A DNA stretch of 64,000 nt. Source: an uncultured Holophagales bacterium. Its GTDB lineage: Bacteria; Acidobacteriota; Thermoanaerobaculia; Multivoradales; UBA5704. Below are positions 20,026-62,850 of this stretch, piece after piece (the first letter of the stretch is position 1; each line of letters begins with the position of its first letter). The DNA is taken from NCBI GenBank assembly GCA_963842525.1, contig CAWJGT010000009.1:1088001-1152000 (forward strand), in the 5' to 3' direction. Both the position numbers and the translations under genes were made by a program. The notes under the pieces are model-generated. The model had not been told where the DNA came from. It was given only the letters and a program-made list of their open reading frames with translations, and searched no databases.

Positions 20026-20892
20026 CTACGCCACAGCCTGCTGTTCCCGCATGCGGGCGAGGCGCACGAGGGTACCGTAGGCAGCATTACGAACGTTGGA
20101 ATCCTCGTCGTTGCGCAGGACGTGAAGGAGCTTGTCGTAAACCCGTTCATGAAAGAAGACGGGTTCGAGCTTCCCGAGTACAAGGGCGGCTACAACGCCG
20201 CTTGTCTCACTCCTTCATCATCATCTCCTAGTCGTTCCAACGTCGACTTGCGGACCTCCGCCATAGTCTCCACCAGATCGTGCAGAGCGATGAGGGCAGC
20301 ACCACGGACGTAAGATTCCCGACTCGACAACAGGTTCAGCCAGAATTCAGCCCATCTCTTCCCTCGCCTGCTTTCCGAAAACGAAGCGCATCCTTGAAGA
20401 AGATCATTTGACTCGAGCGTCTCCTGAGAGATGAATACCGCCTGGAGAGTTTCGGGAGACGCAGGGCCGCCTTCTGCCAGCCCTTGACAAGGTACTTGCC
20501 GGATCCACCAATCAGTGGCTCTCACTTGATCCACAGATAATTGATAAATGTCCGGAATCTCGGCATAGCCGGCCATGCGGAATTCGTGAGCCAGAGTAGT
20601 GAGATCCGGTACATGATCCGGCCGGGGGTCGAGAAGCTGGGCGAGCTCGAAGGCGGCCCTCTTCGCGGGTGAAGAAGGCTTCGAGCAGAGAGCCGTAGTG
20701 CTCCCAATCCTCGTCCAGGTTTCTCAGCTCCTGGCCTTCCAGGGCCTCGGCAAGGGCTGCGGCGATCGCCGCTTCCAGGGCCTTCTTGGCATCGCTCTGG
20801 CTGAGCCGCTTCCGGACGATCCCGGCCGAAGCCCTGACGAGGCTCGTGACGAGACTGGCAGCGATCTTTTCGGTCAGGCCGGGCAATGGCAT
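20026..20892 (-). pseudogene. Decayed HEAT-repeat protein (helical N-terminus fused to a HEAT tail)
   Basis: Three frames join: MPLPGLTEKIAASL..., then SYVRGAALIAL...DDDEGVRQAA, then AALVLGKL...DEDSNVRNAAYGTLVRL. Confidence 0.55.
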
Positions 20893-21136
20893 CAGTTGTA
20901 CGTAAACTATCACGGGCCGGTATCGGACCACTGCGATCTGGCTCGAACCCACCCCGCCCGGTTACGGGCTCACCAAGTCCGGAATCGGCGCCGGCCGCTC
21001 CGAGCTTCGCGCCTCTTCCCGCTGCGGCGTGGAACACTCGCGCTGAATTCGGCGGCTCTCTGCTTGGAAGCTCTATCGCACCTGCGGAGAATAGCTATAC
21101 TGCCGCTTCCTCGGAGGCTACAACCATCGTGGCGTG

Positions 21137-21374
21137 CATCACTGCTGCCATGGTCCGCATCACTCCTGGTGTGATGCGCGATAGTCTGTGCTTGGCCCGA
21201 GTTACTCCGAGGATGGTCCACATCACTCCGAGGGTGGTCCGCATCACTCCTGCCATGGTCCGCATTACTCCTTTTGTGCTTGGACACACTCCGAGCGTGG
21301 CCGGAGTATCTCGGGCCCCGGCAGGGGTAATGTGGCCCGGACGCGGCTTGATGCAGACCACAACAGGAGTGATG
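21137..21374. repeat. Degenerate 21-bp-period array, core CATCACTCC / GGAGTGATG
   Basis: Cores at 21137, 21158, 21200, 21221, 21242, 21263, 21284; inverted cores at 21303, 21324, 21345, 21366. Confidence 0.8.
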
Positions 21375-21392
21375 CACGCCAGGATGGAGCTG

Positions 21393-21845
21393 TCATCCGG
21401 GCTCAGGTGTGTGCTGCGCGCCGGTCTTGCGGTAGACCGTGGGTTTCTGGCCCTCCCCCACAGACTCGACGCCGGCGCTTCCTTTCTGGACCAGCTCCTG
21501 GAGAATCCGGTAGAGGGAACCGCGGTCCGGCTCATAGCCGAGGGCGCTGCAGACGTCGCGGCGCGTGAACGTCTCGGGGAGACGGGGCAGCGCCGCGCGG
21601 ACGTCGACCTCCAGGTCTGCGATGGTCCGGCGCCGGGGCTTGCTCGGAGGCGGCGCTGCCTCCTGTTTCGCCGCGGGCTTCGGGGAGACGAGGGACCCCA
21701 GCCCTCCGCCGATTTCGGCCTGGAGCATCCACACCAGCTCCAGGGCCCGGATCTGGGCCTTGTAGGCGGTTTCGAGCAGTTGGATTCCGGCGCGGAGCTG
21801 CTCCTCAAGCCGTTGTTTGTGCTGTTCGTATTGATTGTGTGTCAT
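21393..21845 (-). CDS. Hypothetical protein: N-terminal coiled coil plus C-terminal wHTH-like domain
   Basis: MTHNQYEQHKQRLEEQLRAG...; FTRRDVCSALGYEPDRGSLYRILQELVQKG...PTVYRK. Confidence 0.7.
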   Translation of the reverse strand: MTHNQYEQHKQRLEEQLRAGIQLLETAYKAQIRALELVWMLQAEIGGGLGSLVSPKPAAKQEAAPPPSKPRRRTIADLEVDVRAALPRLPETFTRRDVCSALGYEPDRGSLYRILQELVQKGSAGVESVGEGQKPTVYRKTGAQHTPEPG

Positions 21846-21904
21846 GGTGTGCACAATCACAGCACAATTCGGAGAGGCTGGCAAGAGCGTGGTGGCGTGG
21901 GCGG

Positions 21905-58928: not shown

Positions 58929-59585
58929 TCACTTTATGGCGCTGCGGCGCAACCTTTCGGCCAGAGAGTCCCGGAAGCTCTCCAACTGGTCTGAGGTGAG
59001 GGGCTCCAGCATCGCGGGCAAGGGGCGTGTCGGAAACTGAGCGAGGAGCCACGCCAGCACACCCGGATCGATTCCAGAGTCCTTGCGCAAAGCGATTTCG
59101 AGGTCGTTCTCGGGAGGAAATCCGGCCTGATCGAGGAAATAGAGGTCGACGAGATCACGAGGCTCGGAGCGCGAGAGGATACAAGTCAGCTTGCTCGCTC
59201 GCAGGTCGGTGAGCGATTCGATGACAATCCCTTCGACCGGCGGCGGTGGAGCCGCAATGTCGGCGACGGGCTCGTGGACCACATCGACCTCAACGCTGTT
59301 TCCGTCCCGAGCCTGGAGTTGCGCACGCACGAGGTGACCCACGTCGCGCAGCAGGGTGACAGCGATTCCGGCATCTGCTCCCGCCCCGGGGAGAAACCCG
59401 ACGAGAGCCCGCATGTCCTCGGCGTCATGGACGAAAAGATCGATGTCTCCGGTCATCCGATGGCCAAGATACACCCCGGCAAGAGCCGCACCGCCACCCA
59501 GGTGGCAGGGGATACGCATCTGGCACACACGCACAAAGTCGAGGACGAAATCCGGGACGACCCGACGATCAAAGGTCTTACGCAT
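58929..59585 (-). CDS. AbiEii/AbiGii-type nucleotidyltransferase toxin
   Basis: LGGGAALAGVYLGHRMTGDIDLF, K...R.EPRDLVDLY. Confidence 0.9.
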   Translation of the reverse strand: MRKTFDRRVVPDFVLDFVRVCQMRIPCHLGGGAALAGVYLGHRMTGDIDLFVHDAEDMRALVGFLPGAGADAGIAVTLLRDVGHLVRAQLQARDGNSVEVDVVHEPVADIAAPPPPVEGIVIESLTDLRASKLTCILSRSEPRDLVDLYFLDQAGFPPENDLEIALRKDSGIDPGVLAWLLAQFPTRPLPAMLEPLTSDQLESFRDSLAERLRRSAIK

Positions 59586-59591
59586 CAGGTC

Positions 59592-59945
59592 TTACGCATC
59601 ACCTGCCCGGATTTGTCGTAGTGGCGGCCACTCGGGCGGCGGGAGCTTCAGCAGCCAAGCCCACATCTGTCGTGAGCGCCCCAGATACCGGATCAGGCGT
59701 GGCCAGAGTGCCCGGATTTCGTCGGGAGTGACGAAAAGCCAGACATCCCGGGTGTTGGCCTCCCGCAGGAGGGCACCCATCCAGTAGGCGCGCTCTTCCG
59801 GATCGGACGAGACGAGGTGCTCTTTAAGCTGGCCGACTGTAGCGGTCGTCCACCAAAGAAAGTACGGCCGCGCCTTATCGTCCAGGAGAGAATCCGTGGT
59901 CGGTGGCAGGCGGCCTGCCGGCAGGGTGAGATTCGTGCTACTCAT
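59592..59945 (-). CDS. Probable antitoxin partner of the AbiEii-like gene
   Basis: PYFLWW...LLREANTRDVWLF...LGRSRQMWAWL; 6 bp upstream of the toxin. Confidence 0.7.
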   Translation of the reverse strand: MSSTNLTLPAGRLPPTTDSLLDDKARPYFLWWTTATVGQLKEHLVSSDPEERAYWMGALLREANTRDVWLFVTPDEIRALWPRLIRYLGRSRQMWAWLLKLPPPEWPPLRQIRAGDA

Positions 59946-60024
59946 CGCAATGTATTCCAGGAAGTACCCTACACGAGCAGTGGCAAGAAACCCAGCCGAT
60001 CCCCCCCTTTGTGAAAAGGGCCTT

Positions 60025-60661
60025 TGTCGCAAAGCCCCGCCAGACACCTCCTCTCCGGCGCCATTTGTCGCACCGTTCCTCTACAAGGTCGCACTGCCTG
60101 CGCCCATTGCGACGTTGTTCGCAGGCAACGTTGCACTGTCTTGAGTCAATGCCGCAATGGGCGCGCACAATGTTGCATTGCGCGGAGGCAGTGCAACATT
60201 GGTCCGTGTCAGATAGGGGTGGGTGGATCTCGGGAAGCCTCAGCCAGCCGAGATCGTCGCACGGATCGCTCTCCTCTCCGGACCGCTCACCCTGAACATC
60301 GCACAAGGGCTCGGTAAAGTCGCTTTGTCTGGACGTAATGCGACATTATCCAACTTCTTTGTCGCGCTGATCTCGCGGATGGTGGCGTTGGGCGGTCAGA
60401 TTGTCGCAATTGTTGGTGGCTCTGCGACATTGCTCTGCAAATTCCTCCCTTAGGAAGGAGCCGCTGTCTTGCGGAACGGTGGCAATGTCGCAATAGACGC
60501 GAACAATGAGAGGGTGTCAGACGAAGCACCGTCTCTTGCGGCCTCTTTGCAGAGAGCCGCGGGAGGAATGCGACATTGCATGAGCTAAGTGCGACATTCA
60601 GTGCGGGCAAGGCTTTATTGTCGCACGGCAATGTCGAGATGATGGGGGGTAGTGCGACATT
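60025..60661. repeat. Degenerate 21-bp-period array with quasi-palindromic core TGTCGCA / TGCGACA
   Basis: Cores at 60066, 60087, 60108, 60129, 60150, 60171, 60192, 60255, 60297, 60318, 60339, 60360, 60402, 60423, 60486; after a 1-bp slip at 60569, 60590, 60632, 60653. Confidence 0.85.
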
Positions 60662-60867
60662 GACGGGAGGCGGAATGGGGGCGAGCCTGTCCATTGCAGA
60701 GATGCTGGCGCAATTGGAGACGAAGATCGCGCACACCGCCATGGCCGACGCGAGCGGATGAACCCGGCGTGCCCTCAGAAGCGGCAACGATGTCAGGCTT
60801 CCCCGGACAGGCTCGCGCGCTGTCATGGAGACGGCGCGGCGGGTCCCTCAGAGAGGAGAAGCCTCAA

Positions 60868-61146
60868 ATGTCCCAGATCCCCCGCTGGACCGCTGCCGCC
60901 CTGGCCGTCCTGTTCCTGACCACAGGTGCTGCTCAGGCCCTCCCGGCCTCTCCGCCGCCCGCCGCACCCGAGCCCGCCGGCTGGCTCGACACCCTCCTGG
61001 CTTGGCTCACCGGCTACCCCAACGGCGTTACCGGCGACGAGGGCTGGGGCATGGGCCCCAACGGTATCGCCGGCGACGAAGGTTGGGGGATGGACCCCAA
61101 CGGCCTCACCAGCGACGAGGGTGTGGAGATGGACCCCAACGGCTGA
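60868..61146 (+). CDS. Secreted peptide precursor with three 13-aa DEGxxMxPNG repeats
   Basis: SD GAGGAG; signal peptide ending AQA; 39-bp tandem repeats 61018-61143; protein ends in MDPNG. Confidence 0.8.
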   Translation: MSQIPRWTAAALAVLFLTTGAAQALPASPPPAAPEPAGWLDTLLAWLTGYPNGVTGDEGWGMGPNGIAGDEGWGMDPNGLTSDEGVEMDPNG

Positions 61147-61175
61147 ATGGCCGGCAGCGCTGACAGGCACCACCT

Positions 61176-61216
61176 GGAGGGGCTCCGGACGCCGGTTCCG
61201 GCTTCCGGCGCCCTTC
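61176..61216 (+). terminator. GC-rich hairpin after the peptide gene
   Basis: GAGGGC..CCGGA..GCCGG / CCGGC..TCCGG..GCCCTTC interrupted inverted repeat. Confidence 0.45.
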
Positions 61217-61291: not shown

Positions 61292-61528
61292 ATGGACGAC
61301 TTCGATGAGCCCTATACCGGCATCCTGGAGCGGCTGCGGCCCGTGCTGGAACGGATCTTCGCCGCCTACGGGATCTCCGAAGCCCAGGCCCAAGACATGT
61401 TGGAGAGCGCCAGCCGTCTCCTTCTCCTGCTGCGGGTGCCGGTGGAGGAGGCGGAGAGCTGGCTGGTCCGGACCCTCGTCGAAAGGTGCCAGATGCTCTC
61501 GGGCGTCCAGAGAGGAGGCCGGCGGTGA
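61292..61528 (+). CDS. Small protein resembling a stand-alone ECF sigma region 2
   Basis: LRPVLERIFAAYGISEAQAQDML...AESWLVRTLVERC; GTGA coupling to the next gene. Confidence 0.6.
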   Translation: MDDFDEPYTGILERLRPVLERIFAAYGISEAQAQDMLESASRLLLLLRVPVEEAESWLVRTLVERCQMLSGVQRGGRR

Positions 61529-62850
61529 AGCTGCATCCGAGCGACGACATGCTGGAAGGACTGCTGGGAGCGTTGGGGAGCGTGGACCGGGAGCTGCTCT
61601 GGCACGTGGTGGAGTGCGAGCCCTGCCGCGAGCGGCTGTCGCAGTTGCCCCGGCCCGAGCCGGCCGAGCGGGAGGAGCCGGAGGAGCCTTCCTACGAAAA
61701 GGCCTTCGAAACGGCCCTGGGCCGGCTCCACGAGCAGGCGCGCGTCCTCCAGCGGGAGCGCAAGGAGGCCCTCGGCCTCTTCGTCGAGCTGCGGGAACGG
61801 CGGAGCGAGTCAGCGGAGATCGTCCAGCAGGACACCCGTTTCCACACCTGGGCCGTCTTCGAGCTGCTGATCGACCGCAGCGGCGAGACGGGGGCCCAGG
61901 ACCCCGAAGCCGGGGAAGAGCTGGCGCGGCTGGCCCTTCTCGTCGCCGACCGGCTGGACCCGGTCCACTATCCGGCCGTCCTCATCGAGGATCTACGGGC
62001 GCGCGCCTGGGGCTACCTCGGCAACGCCCGCCGCGTAGCCTCGGACCTCGGAGGAGCAGAAGAAGCCATGGACACTGCTCGCGAGCACCTCGAAAGGGGC
62101 ACGGGAGAGCCGATCGAGCAGGCGATCCACCTCGATCTCAAGGCCTCGTTGCGCAGAGGCCAGCGCCGGTTCGAGGAAGCCCTGGAGCTCGTGGATCAGG
62201 CCGTGGCGATCTTCCTGGAAAACGGCGCGCGGCACCGGGCGGGGCGTTCCCTGGTAAACCGCTCACTCGTGCACAACTATTTCGGTCAAAACGAGGGAGC
62301 CAACGAGGCGTTGCGCAAGGCGATCGGTTTGATCGATCCGGAGCGGGAGCCGCGGCTGTTGCTCTGCGCTCGGCATAACCTGACCGGTTACACCGCCGAG
62401 ACTGGCCGCTTTCAGGAGGCCCTCGAGCTCTACCACGAGACGCGCCCGCTCTACCGCGATTTCGTGGATGCCTGGACCCAGAACCGCCGCAAGTGGCTCA
62501 AGGGCAAGATCGACCACGGCCTGGGCCGGCTGGCTGCGGCCGAGTCGTTGTTCCGCGCCGCCCGCGACGGTTTCATGACCGAAGGCATCCCCTATGACAC
62601 CGCGCTGGTGTCCCTCGACCTCGCCCGTCTTTACGCCGAGCAGGGGCGGACCGCCGAGCTGAAGAGTCTGGCCGGAGAGCTGGTACCGCTCTTCGCCTCC
62701 CGCCACATCCACCGCGAAGCCCTGGCCGCCCTGGCGCTCCTCCGTCAGGCGCTGGCTACGGAGACAGCGAATCTCGACCTCGCCGTCCGGGTCGGCGCCT
62801 ACCTCCGGAAAGCCGAAAACGATCCGGAGCTGCGGTTCAGGGAAGGGTGA
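61525..62850 (+). CDS. ZAS-type zinc finger + TPR protein
   Basis: HPS...HVVECEPC (HxxxCxxC) followed by TPR-like helices; no TM segment. Confidence 0.8.
   Translation: MKLHPSDDMLEGLLGALGSVDRELLWHVVECEPCRERLSQLPRPEPAEREEPEEPSYEKAFETALGRLHEQARVLQRERKEALGLFVELRERRSESAEIVQQDTRFHTWAVFELLIDRSGETGAQDPEAGEELARLALLVADRLDPVHYPAVLIEDLRARAWGYLGNARRVASDLGGAEEAMDTAREHLERGTGEPIEQAIHLDLKASLRRGQRRFEEALELVDQAVAIFLENGARHRAGRSLVNRSLVHNYFGQNEGANEALRKAIGLIDPEREPRLLLCARHNLTGYTAETGRFQEALELYHETRPLYRDFVDAWTQNRRKWLKGKIDHGLGRLAAAESLFRAARDGFMTEGIPYDTALVSLDLARLYAEQGRTAELKSLAGELVPLFASRHIHREALAALALLRQALATETANLDLAVRVGAYLRKAENDPELRFREG

Follow-up and report, generated by a model that had tools for sequence, protein, structure and literature searches.

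The 64,000-nt stretch of DNA analyzed here (the window), which comes from a 9.95-Mb genome labeled G000, carries a noncoding array of short near-palindromic cores that keep a 21-bp register and stop just short of the truncated start of a small gene. We consider it probable that the cores form a row of recognition sites, in phase with the DNA helix, for a small DNA-binding protein specific to this lineage and that the array stands here as an orphaned operator or nucleation platform. Literature searches, at the level of listings and abstracts, turned up neither such arrays nor this protein family.

A scan for TGTCGCA or TGCGACA with at most one mismatch located 17 cores between 60025 and 60659, 10 in the TGTCGCA and 7 in the TGCGACA orientation. 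Ten are exact (starting at 60025, 60066, 60339, 60402, 60423, 60486, 60569, 60590, 60619, and 60653), and seven have one mismatch (60087, 60108, 60150, 60171, 60192, 60255, and 60360). Fifteen of the 17 share a single 21-bp phase with a tolerance of one base (Rayleigh R of 0.90, p ~1e-6): from 60066 to 60486, the core centers lie at phase 9 modulo 21 over 12 consecutive sites, three of the last four cores lie at phase 8, the core at 60025 lies at phase 10, and the one at 60619 is out of phase. The shift from phase 9 to phase 8 indicates that one base was lost between blocks B and C (Table 1). Wrapping the sequence at 21 nt brought out additional in-phase sites with two mismatches at 60129, 60297, 60318, and 60632, so that the original prediction of about 20 cores of mixed orientation on a 21-bp register is borne out by 17 cores and 4 weaker sites. 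The consensus, W2-TG-(TCG or CGA)-CA-W2, is a near-palindrome, and therefore the central 3 bp alone carry the "orientation" of a core. The register holds without insertions or deletions over 420 bp of the array, while the spacers have diverged past recognition.

Table 1. Features of the array and its immediate surroundings (positions within the window)
Feature	Position	Strand	Details
117-aa gene, diverging from the left edge of the array	59595..59945	-	Partner of the AbiEii gene at 58932-59585
Phased array	60025..60659		17 cores and ~4 weaker in-phase sites, 21-bp register
Block A	60025..60198		Cores 60025(+), 60066(+), 60087(+), 60108(-), 60150(+), 60171(+), 60192(-); weak site 60129
Degenerate middle, register kept	60199..60338		60255 CGTCGCA, 60297 CATCGCA, 60318 AGTCGCT, all at phase 9
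Block B	60339..60492		Cores 60339(-), 60360(+), 60402(+), 60423(-), 60486(+), all at phase 9
Block C	60569..60659		60569(-), 60590(-), 60653(-) at phase 8; out-of-phase 60619(+); weak site 60632
GGGAGG, ribosome-binding-site-like hexamer	60665..60670	+	4 nt before ATG; read from the sequence
28-codon ORF (MGASLSIAEMLAQLETKIAH...), 5' stub of a coiled-coil/winged-helix family gene	60675..60761	+	Assigned by family likeness

The periodicity also survives the comparison with shuffled sequence that had been proposed as its critical check. Base autocorrelation at lag 21 between 60025 and 60665 is 0.385, against 0.256 +/- 0.018 in dinucleotide shuffles (z of 7.4), a value equaled by none of 2,000 shuffles, and lags 42, 63, and 84 are likewise among the top lags. 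The exact 7-mer occurs 838 times in the 9.95-Mb genome (84 per Mb), which gives an expectation of ~0.05 in the 641 bp of the array, where 10 are found. Outside the core the units differ too much for Tandem Repeats Finder, which passed over the array; a repeat search returned spacings of 21, 63, 84, 147, and 230. The GC content of the array is 57.7%, compared with 67.8% for the genome.

The array is noncoding, with stops in all six frames. That it might be a decayed gene for a protein with 7- or 14-amino-acid repeats, with GNVAL/GSATL-type units in frame 1, is extremely unlikely. This idea draws on the equivalence of 21 bp and seven codons, on the xNVALxG/GSATLxx-like peptides that recur in frame 1, and on the coding test applied to periodic regions of the genome, which 60 of 258 pass, the other 198 being noncoding-like. 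Against it, the best frame contains three in-frame stops and a frameshift; GC by codon position is 0.61/0.54/0.59, with none of the rise at third positions (GC3 of 0.84) seen in the winged-helix family gene and in the neighboring TPR gene; and heptad-like peptides of this type (NVAL/SATL) also appear on the reverse strand because the core is near-palindromic. Spacings of 20, 41, and 62 bp and periods of 19.75 to 20.5 bp, which are not multiples of 3, would break any frame in sister arrays. The original argument against a heptad-coding ORF was thus right for this array, and no stop-free frame of at least 70 residues with this repeat pattern came to light at any of the nine clusters of exact cores.

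We also regard it as improbable that the array acts as RNA, whether as a structured leader of the small gene or as a separate noncoding RNA whose inverted cores form hairpins that some factor binds or processes. The array of an intact module extends to the ribosome-binding site, which makes transcription of at least part of it probable, and its folding beats that of shuffled sequences (z of -4.5 for the plus strand and -7.7 for the minus strand, 20 shuffles each). Yet both strands fold well because any DNA with inverted copies would do so, the order of plus and minus cores differs between arrays, which leaves no conserved set of hairpins, and two turns of the DNA helix is a period without significance for RNA. 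An Rfam scan of the array (E up to 1) returned only chance-level matches to mir-33 and sul1, both under the gathering score. The alternative offered in the original prediction, a repeat-spacer RNA array, finds no support in the same evidence, and the array does not qualify as CRISPR-like either: the common part is only the 7- to 11-bp core, orientation is mixed, Tandem Repeats Finder reports no array, and no Rfam family matches.

What follows the array links it to a protein family. The order core, GGGAGG, ATG recurs in intact paralogs, and the final core ends 15 bp before the start codon, within the range of 15 to 20 bp seen in the paralogs examined. On its own, the short ORF matches the first 24 residues of a ~170-amino-acid family weakly (E of 0.17); its DNA shares 80% identity with the intact paralog G000:C9:65403 over 81 nt, rising to 97% over 35 nt. 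The likeness to the family ends at ~60735, after ~20 codons, and therefore the remaining ~150 codons are missing. The helical ORF that had been suspected of being truncated is accordingly real and truncated, the 5' stub of a family gene.

On the other side of the array, the AbiEii gene and its 117-amino-acid partner are conserved at 77 to 84% identity in four genomes of the same genus (G005, G002, G001, and G003, in the last on two contig ends). We considered the array as an operator for an AbiEi antitoxin of this pair (58932-59945) and rejected the idea: the pair is kept in the relatives, the likeness to them stops at ~59913-59973, and none of the four loci has an exact TGTCGCA/TGCGACA cluster, downstream sequence having been read in G005 only. 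The DNA of the array locus is nonsyntenic with the same-genus genomes. Low-depth soil contigs (165 to 204 bp) cover 59600-59948 and 60989-61192 and do not cover the array.

Arrays of this architecture accompany the family as a whole. We compared 63 family loci, 13 in G000 and 50 from 18 relatives (19 genomes). In 59 of them, the top autocorrelation lag in the 800 bp upstream is 20 to 21 bp or a multiple, a property found in 106 of 500 random G000 segments; 56 loci lie above the 95th percentile of the random set, and the other property, a 20- to 21-bp top lag upstream, is absent from 4 of the 63. In intact modules the array spans 500 to 900 bp directly upstream of the gene, up to the ribosome-binding site; an array holds 17 to 45 sites, far above an ordinary operator. 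The cores differ by paralog (for example, TGTCGCA, AGTCGCA, TGCCGCAA, GTCGCGA, AAGCTTATCCACCGC, GTCCCGGGAC, and CCGGTACA), and the periods of paralog arrays range from 19.75 to 21 bp. The cores are also the conserved part. When four paralogous arrays were aligned, core positions were 82% identical to the reference and spacers 58%, with invariant columns numbering 91 of 147 in the cores and 137 of 525 in the spacers, a difference reached by none of 671 circular shifts of the mask.

These comparisons bear on the reading of the array as a selfish or neutral minisatellite, that is, a functionless 21-bp tandem repeat that grew through slippage or recombination, may have traveled with mobile DNA, and is now decaying. 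Such an origin would suit the nonsyntenic locus and the broken adjacent gene, as well as the IS91-like transposase and integrase upstream of the array at C9:1898780 (identified by eye from ORFs) and the 96%-identical stretch of about 0.9 kb that adjoins the array at C3:355660. We nevertheless judge it quite unlikely: slippage would copy whole units, whereas here the cores are conserved and the spacers are not, the register is free of indels over 420 bp despite the diverged spacers, and 59 of 63 loci repeat this architecture although their cores are unrelated.

Clusters of the exact core TGTCGCA/TGCGACA occur at only nine loci in G000. Two adjoin intact family genes, the one in the window adjoins the 28-codon stub, two adjoin pseudogene remains (one scored by the family profile, the other seen only in an ORF listing by eye), and four have no family-gene remnant nearby. 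The array at C9:1898780 has about 15 plus and 6 minus cores (21 sites, counted by eye), compared with 10 plus and 7 minus in the window. Exact cores at gene-less arrays (14 at C34:414709 and 12 at C12:86383) are among the highest counts, and therefore an array can persist without an adjacent binder.

The family has 14 full copies in G000. Among the genomes searched it is confined to one Acidobacteriota family, being present in 18 of 24 genomes of that taxonomic family and in none of 300 other genomes of the phylum; in public data, a cutoff of E up to 0.001 gives 467 representatives of clusters formed at 50% identity. The 174-amino-acid family protein belongs to no Pfam, NCBIfam, or PHROGs family, PADLOC gives it a weak match to the AbiEi winged helix (E of 0.003), and the family profile finds no PDB sequence below E of 0.15. 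AlphaFold2 (mean pLDDT of 80.8) predicts a long helix (residues 7-72), a disordered linker (73-92), and a winged helix (93-166). The best Foldseek matches in the PDB are winged helices that bind DNA, those of Zur, Fur, PadR, Rok, RosR, and Cdc6, at weak E-values (1.6e-3 and worse, none reaching 1e-3) and with the Rok DNA-binding domain at rank 23. In a protein atlas the nearest named clusters are HARE-HTH (0.88) and then Rok-like (0.85), which we take as a lead only. Residues 1-75 are predicted to form a homodimer (ipSAE of 0.56 versus 0.02 for the best control, with 100% contact agreement between runs and partner pLDDT of at least 83) through an antiparallel interface centered on the invariant residues H28, E32, and H35. 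In calibration of the dimer tool, 20 of 30 solved homo-pairs and 1 of 23 single chains attained its mark, counts that apply only roughly here (own alignment used).

Similarity in array 7-mer content follows protein identity (r of ~0.3, reached by none of 2,000 permutations). The partial Mantel correlation for the winged helix (0.195) is no stronger than that for the N-terminal helix (0.158), which points to co-inheritance of gene and array rather than to DNA-reading specificity. Covariation between recognition helix and core, read by eye before this test, is thus a real signal that is not confined to the DNA-binding domain, and we dropped it as proof of cognate binding. Members of the family have a rather conserved recognition helix, whereas the cores vary, and two loci (L030 and L036) have nearly identical recognition helices and different top motifs.

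Alternatively, the array may be a functional DNA element that depends on something else, for which a nucleoid protein of general type and the intrinsic curvature of phased, A/T-flanked TG/CA steps are candidates, with the small gene regulated by the array or merely traveling along; to this we assign a small probability. In its favor, array content is predicted by the winged helix no better than by the N-terminal helix, orphan arrays keep as many exact cores as gene-linked ones or more, and periodic regions are numerous in the genome. A scan of G000 found 264 regions with a 19.75- to 21-bp period (198 noncoding-like), far more than the 14 full family copies, and none in a triplet-shuffled control. 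A single general factor leaves it unexplained, however, that each paralog has its own core and that array and gene are linked in 59 of 63 loci across 19 genomes, and other classes of array adjoin their own small winged-helix proteins or regulators.

Listing the neighbors of periodic arrays across the genome, a check suggested in the original prediction, showed that some lie beside small proteins of the same architecture or TPR regulators. These other small proteins share the predicted architecture of the family with no detectable sequence likeness (hhalign probability of 0.7%), and seven of their nine tblastn matches lie at most 400 bp from an array, against about 4% expected by chance. Clustering did not establish a common neighbor family: of 175 ORFs reading away from 148 noncoding-like arrays, chosen by a crude GC3-based procedure, 141 are singletons.

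Plasmid centromeres and iterons are the textbook cases in which rows of phased sites come with a small cognate binder, but we know of no such pairing as a multicopy chromosomal design. The iterons of P1, F, RK2, and pPS10 are repeats ~21 to 22 bp (two turns) apart beside the gene of an autoregulating winged-helix Rep protein, which binds to the repeats. The family protein differs in having one winged helix (93-166) and a 65-residue helix rather than a WH1-WH2 pair, it has no Pfam Rep match, and the modules differ in the mixed orientation of the cores here, the absence of replication genes nearby, and their 14 full chromosomal copies. In pSK1, repeats located upstream of par make up the par centromere. 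Like pSK1 Par, RacA, and RocS, the family protein joins a DNA-binding HTH-type domain and a coiled coil in one chain; unlike them, it has the coiled coil first, it has no DUF536 and no C-terminal amphipathic membrane helix (the protein ends just past the wing), and it is multicopy and chromosomal. RocS itself is described as combining a DNA-binding HTH-type domain and a coiled coil and as acting on clustered sites (PMC11500499).

The parC/ParR systems of R1 and pSK41, tubC/TubR of pBtoxis, and the parS heptads bound by omega of pSM19035 are presented in one account as short repeats directly upstream of the gene or operon of the binder (PMC5016525). According to the same account, centromere-binding proteins are small and dimeric (TubR being a winged helix), promoter repression is a further activity of the complex, and omega binds direct and inverted repeats equivalently (PMC5016525). 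The family resembles these systems in the position of the array, immediately upstream of the putative binder gene in 59 of 63 loci. It differs in that no ParM, TubZ, or ParA motor gene lies beside any of the 14 G000 copies, as judged by eye from sequences in ORF maps covering 2.5 kb upstream and 5 kb downstream; no neighbor gene is conserved in these maps. Moreover, the modules are chromosomal (14 full copies on contigs of 0.1 to 2 Mb of the 9.95-Mb genome), the sites recur every 21 bp and number 17 to 45 per array, whereas centromere sites abut at 7 to 12 bp, and the protein carries a coiled coil of 65 residues and does not resemble ParR, TubR, or omega in sequence. The H-NS-like protein Rok of Bacillus subtilis is reported to bridge DNA as a dimer (PMC9757077). 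The family protein shares with Rok and its fellow H-NS-like proteins a predicted N-terminal oligomerization helix, a flexible linker, and a domain at the C terminus for DNA binding. It has neither Pfam Rok_N (PF26513) nor WHD_Rok (PF23159) in hmmscan at E up to 10, and whereas Rok binds AT-rich DNA genome-wide with no private phased array at its own gene, the family cores are specific, contain G+C, and come one per paralog. The original prediction had spoken of a phased protein-binding platform of centromere, iteron, or nucleoid type. The platform is favored by the upstream arrays, by the conservation of cores over spacers, and by the stub of the same protein, whereas the centromere and iteron labels fail for want of a motor gene, a Rep-type initiator, and a plasmid context.

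We infer that the family protein binds these cores, and the predicted fold suggests how the complex could act. The putative binder would consist of an N-terminal helix that dimerizes as an antiparallel coiled coil, a flexible linker of ~20 residues, and a C-terminal winged helix, with each winged helix reading one W2-TG-YCG-CA-W2 core. The linker would let the domain dock on a core in either orientation, and the spacing of two turns would put every site on one face of the DNA. Rod-like dimers could then join neighboring sites into a single, cooperatively assembled nucleoprotein complex. This complex would silence or buffer the promoter of the binder gene itself and could form bridges to further arrays that share its core. 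Counting against this reading, a sigma-70 promoter scan in and near the array found 0 sites; a terminator scan found one terminator-like site, which is no excess over shuffles. The copy in the window was probably orphaned when a rearrangement in variable DNA cut its binder gene after ~20 codons. The array is no less intact than those linked to genes, which leaves two options: a relic of recent origin, or a site that paralogs continue to serve in trans. Binding in trans could come from G000:C9:65403, the nearest paralog, or from the paralogs at C9:1898780 and C30:112244, which have the same core.

A bolder reading, which we think possible but unlikely, is that this Thermoanaerobaculia-type lineage of Acidobacteriota possesses an "addressable" chromatin. 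A genome would hold more than 100 phased arrays with individual cores, every array being read by a private small protein shaped as an antiparallel coiled-coil rod with a flexibly tethered winged helix at each end, and arrays with the same core, gene-linked and orphan alike, would be bridged into long-range loops or silenced domains over variable, defense-rich DNA; the array in the window would then be a working trans-site and not a relic. The invariant His/Glu cluster at the center of the dimer interface could make such an assembly responsive to metal or pH. At least two families with no detectable sequence likeness share the plan, and TPR regulators also have adjacent arrays. There are nine TGTCGCA arrays and only two to three plausible intact binders. 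The copy in the window is of smaller significance because its binder gene is broken. If the arrays are binding platforms, they would constitute a natural library of orthogonal protein/site pairs in an uncultured soil lineage, and possibly an undescribed way to organize or silence variable DNA.

The core of the window array is a near-palindrome, W2-TG-(TCG/CGA)-CA-W2, of which a motif scan found 10 exact copies and 7 copies with one mismatch, 10 of them facing one way and 7 the other. The flipping orientation of the original prediction therefore stands in that both orientations are present, but it is carried by only the central three bases of the near-palindrome. The centers of 12 consecutive sites, from 60066 to 60486, lie at phase 9 modulo 21 and three of the last four at phase 8, which points to the loss of a single base between 60486 and 60569; of the other two sites, one has phase 10 and one falls outside the register (Rayleigh R of 0.90; p about 1e-6). 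The register is kept through the degenerate middle of the array when the sequence is wrapped at 21 nt, with two-mismatch sites at 60129, 60297, 60318, and 60632, and with these in-phase sites the prediction of some 20 cores on a 21-bp register is confirmed. Base autocorrelation at lag 21 was 0.385, compared with 0.256 ± 0.018 in dinucleotide shuffles (z of 7.4), a value equaled by 0 of 2,000 shuffles at any lag from 4 to 129, so the periodicity is significant against shuffled sequence; the next-ranked lags were 42, 63, and 84. The exact 7-mer TGTCGCA/TGCGACA occurs 838 times in the source genome (9.95 Mb, 67.8% G+C), and the 10 exact cores in 641 bp are about 200-fold more than expected. Tandem Repeats Finder did not report the array because its units share only the core, and a repeat search returned spacings of 21, 63, 84, 147, and 230.

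Features of the window and of the source genome (C-numbers, contig:position in GCA_963842525.1)
Feature	Position	Strand	Remarks
Phased core array	window 60025-60659		17 sites, TGTCGCA/TGCGACA at ≤1 mismatch
Stub ORF	window 60675-60761		28 codons; resembles start of 172- to 174-aa family protein
AbiEii-type gene pair	window 58932-59945		left of array; Pfam AbiEii, E 4e-15
Secreted peptide gene	window 60868-61146		39-bp repeat (DPNG-type units); right after stub
Zinc-motif/TPR protein gene	window 61486-62850		same cassette as secreted peptide gene
Second phased array	window, about 21100-21400		21-bp phased GGTCCGCATCACTCC-type units; between two genes
Small gene	window 21396-21884	minus	150 to 163 aa
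Gene with NACHT N-terminal helical domain 2	window 20515-20952	minus	Pfam NNH2, E 7e-5, below cut-off
Arrays at two paralogs	C9:107963-108430; C1:320895-321260		about 17 near-tandem ~20-bp GATAAGCTTATCCACCGCGA-type units
Periodic region (example)	C34:230782-231377		LTGVEVSVTPVKLA-type units, read on the minus strand
Periodic regions (examples)	C9:191618-192184; C9:1069851-1070282
TPR-associated arrays (examples)	C9:239672-240010; C9:603160-603773; C34:675239-675709

A decayed heptad-repeat gene would also produce a 21-bp period, and the best frame of the array does contain heptad-like GNVAL../GSATL.. units, yet it has three stops and a frameshift. Similar peptides on the reverse strand are explained by the near-palindromic core. 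Stops interrupt all six frames, so that no open frame crosses the array, and G+C is flat over the codon positions (0.61/0.54/0.59), compared with a GC3 of 0.84 in the family gene and in the neighboring TPR gene. In sister arrays the sites are spaced 20, 41, and 62 bp apart and whole-array periods run from 19.75 to 20.5 bp, which no reading frame can follow. Collectively, the stops, the flat GC3, and the sister-array spacings lead us to reject the decayed gene, in line with the original prediction's argument against a heptad-coding ORF. Predicted RNA folding of both strands beat shuffles (z of -4.5 and -7.7; 20 shuffles each), a result that does not discriminate between readings, and a promoter consensus scan of the array region found none.

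The ORF start downstream of the array, described earlier as helical and truncated, is borne out as the 5' stub of a gene whose intact homologs encode 172- to 174-aa proteins at C9:1898256-1898780 and C30:111726-112244. The stub's match to the family profile is weak alone (24 residues, E of 0.17). The stub's DNA matches a paralog at C9:65403 with 80% identity over 81 nt, a stretch that begins 21 nt ahead of the ATG and reaches codon 20, and with 97% identity over 35 nt; the likeness ceases at about 60735. Tblastn and profile searches found 14 full-length copies in the source genome, as well as fragments that include a frameshifted copy and the stub. Neither Pfam nor NCBIfam holds a family for the protein, and a word-indexed search returned 13 relatives, all "hypothetical." A profile search of 1.84 billion cluster representatives gave 467 matches with E ≤ 0.001, 327 of them with E ≤ 1e-10, with lengths of 150 to 185 aa in nearly all of the 150 matches listed. 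Among other genomes of the same taxonomic family, 18 of 24 contained the protein family, with as many as 15 matches in one genome. Searches of 16 genomes drawn from eleven further families of the order found none, as did searches of 300 additional genomes sampled over the phylum, a set with a single member of the same taxonomic family.

The DNA around the window array suggests how the stub arose. The AbiEii-type pair is conserved in four same-genus genomes at 77 to 84% identity, and the likeness ceases at about 59913 to 59973; none of the four fetched loci has more than one exact core, with downstream sequence read in one (G005) only. To the right of the stub lies a multicopy cassette of a secreted peptide and a TPR regulator, which lacks synteny to same-genus contigs. 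The array and stub thus sit in variable DNA, and this context argues that the binder gene was probably lost through rearrangement. The cassette itself has dozens of partial matches in the source genome and its genus.

Linkage between arrays and family genes extends well beyond the window. We considered 63 loci at which 800 bp or more of upstream sequence was available: 13 in the source genome and 50 in 18 relatives. The top autocorrelation lag fell at 19 to 22, 39 to 43, 59 to 64, or 79 to 85 bp in 59 of the 63 (106 of 500 random segments of the source genome), and 56 of the 63 lay above the random set's 95th percentile; because kin loci are not independent, these figures are counts and do not amount to a test. 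Almost every family array has mixed core orientation. The cores upstream of the paralogs in the source genome vary (TGTCGCA, AGTCGCA, TGCCGCA(A), GTCGCGA, and GATAAGCTTATCCACCGCGA-type), and TTATCCAC within the GATAAGCTTATCCACCGCGA-type unit resembles a DnaA box, probably by coincidence. Among four alignable TGTCGCA arrays, two beside intact genes and two beside pseudogenes, identity to the reference array was 82% at 147 core positions and 58% at 525 spacer positions, and invariant columns numbered 91 of 147 and 137 of 525, respectively. When the core mask was shifted circularly, 0 of 671 shifts gave a difference this large; in these alignments such a pattern is the signature of selection or homogenization that would act on the cores and not on entire repeats. 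The last core lies 15 to 20 bp before the ATG, directly 5' of GGGAGG, in the intact copies that were aligned and in the window, so a bound protein would sit over the promoter or leader. The 7-mer content of the arrays correlates with protein identity (r about 0.3; reached in 0 of 2,000 permutations), but the winged helix, with a partial correlation of 0.195, does no better than the N-terminal helix, at 0.158. The comparison indicates that gene and array are inherited together; it does not thereby indicate that the winged helix sets the core, and two loci with a near-identical recognition helix have different top motifs.

Exact-core clusters occur at nine loci of the source genome, with an intact gene at two, a remnant at three (the window, C3:1116408, and C3:355660, the last recognized only by eye), and neither at four. 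Orphan arrays hold the most exact cores (14 at C34:414709 and 12 at C12:86383), compared with 10 in the window array and 10 and 7 in two gene-linked arrays. Arrays therefore outlive or outnumber their binders, which points either to use in trans or to another reader. IS91-like transposase and tyrosine-recombinase genes, judged from ORFs by eye, lie 1.2 to 3.4 kb upstream of the C9:1898780 array, and a stretch of about 0.9 kb next to that array shares 96% identity with DNA adjoining the C3:355660 array; together these are a possible route of module spread.

AlphaFold2 (20-row alignment; mean pLDDT of 80.8) predicts a helix at residues 7 to 72, disorder at 73 to 92, and a winged helix at 93 to 166 (H-b-H-H-b-b). 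The best Foldseek PDB matches, to DNA-binding winged helices from Zur/Fur, PadR, Rok, RosR, and Cdc6/Orc1, were weak throughout, starting at an E of 1.6e-3 and never reaching 1e-3. Residues invariant in the family are M1, L14, H28, E32, H35, R36, F111, E119, G156, and E161. Modeled as a homodimer, residues 1 to 75 gave an ipSAE of 0.56 (best control, 0.02), 100% contact agreement between runs, and partner pLDDT of at least 83; in the tool's calibration, 20 of 30 solved homo-pairs and 1 of 23 single chains attained the mark, counts that hold only roughly here because our own alignment served as input. The predicted contacts (28-38, 18-46, 14-53, 32-32, and 35-35) support an antiparallel pair centered on the invariant His/Glu cluster, although two-helix coiled coils are easy prediction targets. 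In this model H28, E32, H35, and R36 lie at the center of the interface, with 32-32, 35-35, and 28-35 contacts, and the cluster resembles a metal or pH-sensitive site.

We propose a mechanism that, taken as a whole, we regard as moderately likely. The cores would be docking sites for the family's winged helix, and the two-turn spacing would set all sites on one DNA face. The antiparallel rod would carry one tethered domain per end, and its ends (about 80 to 110 Å apart by our arithmetic at 1.5 Å per residue, compared with 71 Å for 21 bp) would link neighboring sites in either orientation into a cooperative, filament-like complex. At intact modules the complex would repress or buffer expression of its own binder. 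The window array, which lost its gene yet is preserved like gene-linked arrays, would be either a recent relic or a trans-site for a C9:65403-type protein. Complexes of this kind may silence or insulate variable DNA, form loops, or act in titration. The protein-binding platform of the original prediction is thus favored by core conservation and array-gene linkage, short of proof.

Pairing of a repeat array with a small binder is also found in parC/ParR, tubC/TubR, and omega; unlike these, the family modules come without a motor gene, a plasmid, or sequence likeness. TubR is a winged-helix protein, and omega binds repeats in both direct and inverted arrangement (PMC5016525). In its plan the family protein matches the H-NS-like proteins, Rok in particular (PMC9757077). 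A Rok-like cluster scores 0.85 in the protein atlas, a lead, but the family protein has no Pfam Rok match. pSK1 Par, a single-protein factor, combines an HTH with a coiled coil. RacA and RocS do likewise (PMC11500499). All three differ from the family protein in domain order and in having a membrane or pole anchor. Iteron/Rep systems have the two-turn spacing in common with the arrays, but their protein is different. By analogy, the arrays would function most like centromere or operator arrays with small binders, without being members of these systems.

The genome-wide search called for at the outset contrasted 19.75- to 21-bp periodicity with lags ±3, which cancels codon periodicity, and found 264 regions scoring over 0.30, of which 143 exceeded 0.6 and 53 exceeded 1.0, compared with none at any threshold in a triplet-shuffled genome (600-bp blocks). 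By a crude coding test (open frame with GC3 of at least 0.78), 60 of 258 regions were coding-like and 198 non-coding-like; 148 of the latter are 250 bp or longer, and their cores are diverse and often palindromic. Some regions, such as C34:230782-231377, may be real heptad-repeat genes. A family gene lies within 1.5 kb of only 8 of the 264 at our thresholds. The protein encoded beside the second window array belongs to no Pfam family, shows no detectable resemblance to the first family (hhalign probability of 0.7%), and has at least 297 relatives; its predicted fold (helix 3 to 47, disorder 48 to 74, winged helix 75 to 140; pLDDT of 81) follows the same plan. Of nine tblastn hits to it and to a further small protein that we judged by eye to be similar, seven lie no more than 400 bp from an array (about 4% by chance). 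Downstream of the 3' ends of multicopy TPR regulator genes, most within about 260 bp, are 27 non-coding-like arrays, which could be target sites of those regulators. The window array is thus one modest, damaged case of a large-scale design in its lineage, and its significance comes chiefly from the family-wide and genome-wide pattern, not from the window's broken copy.
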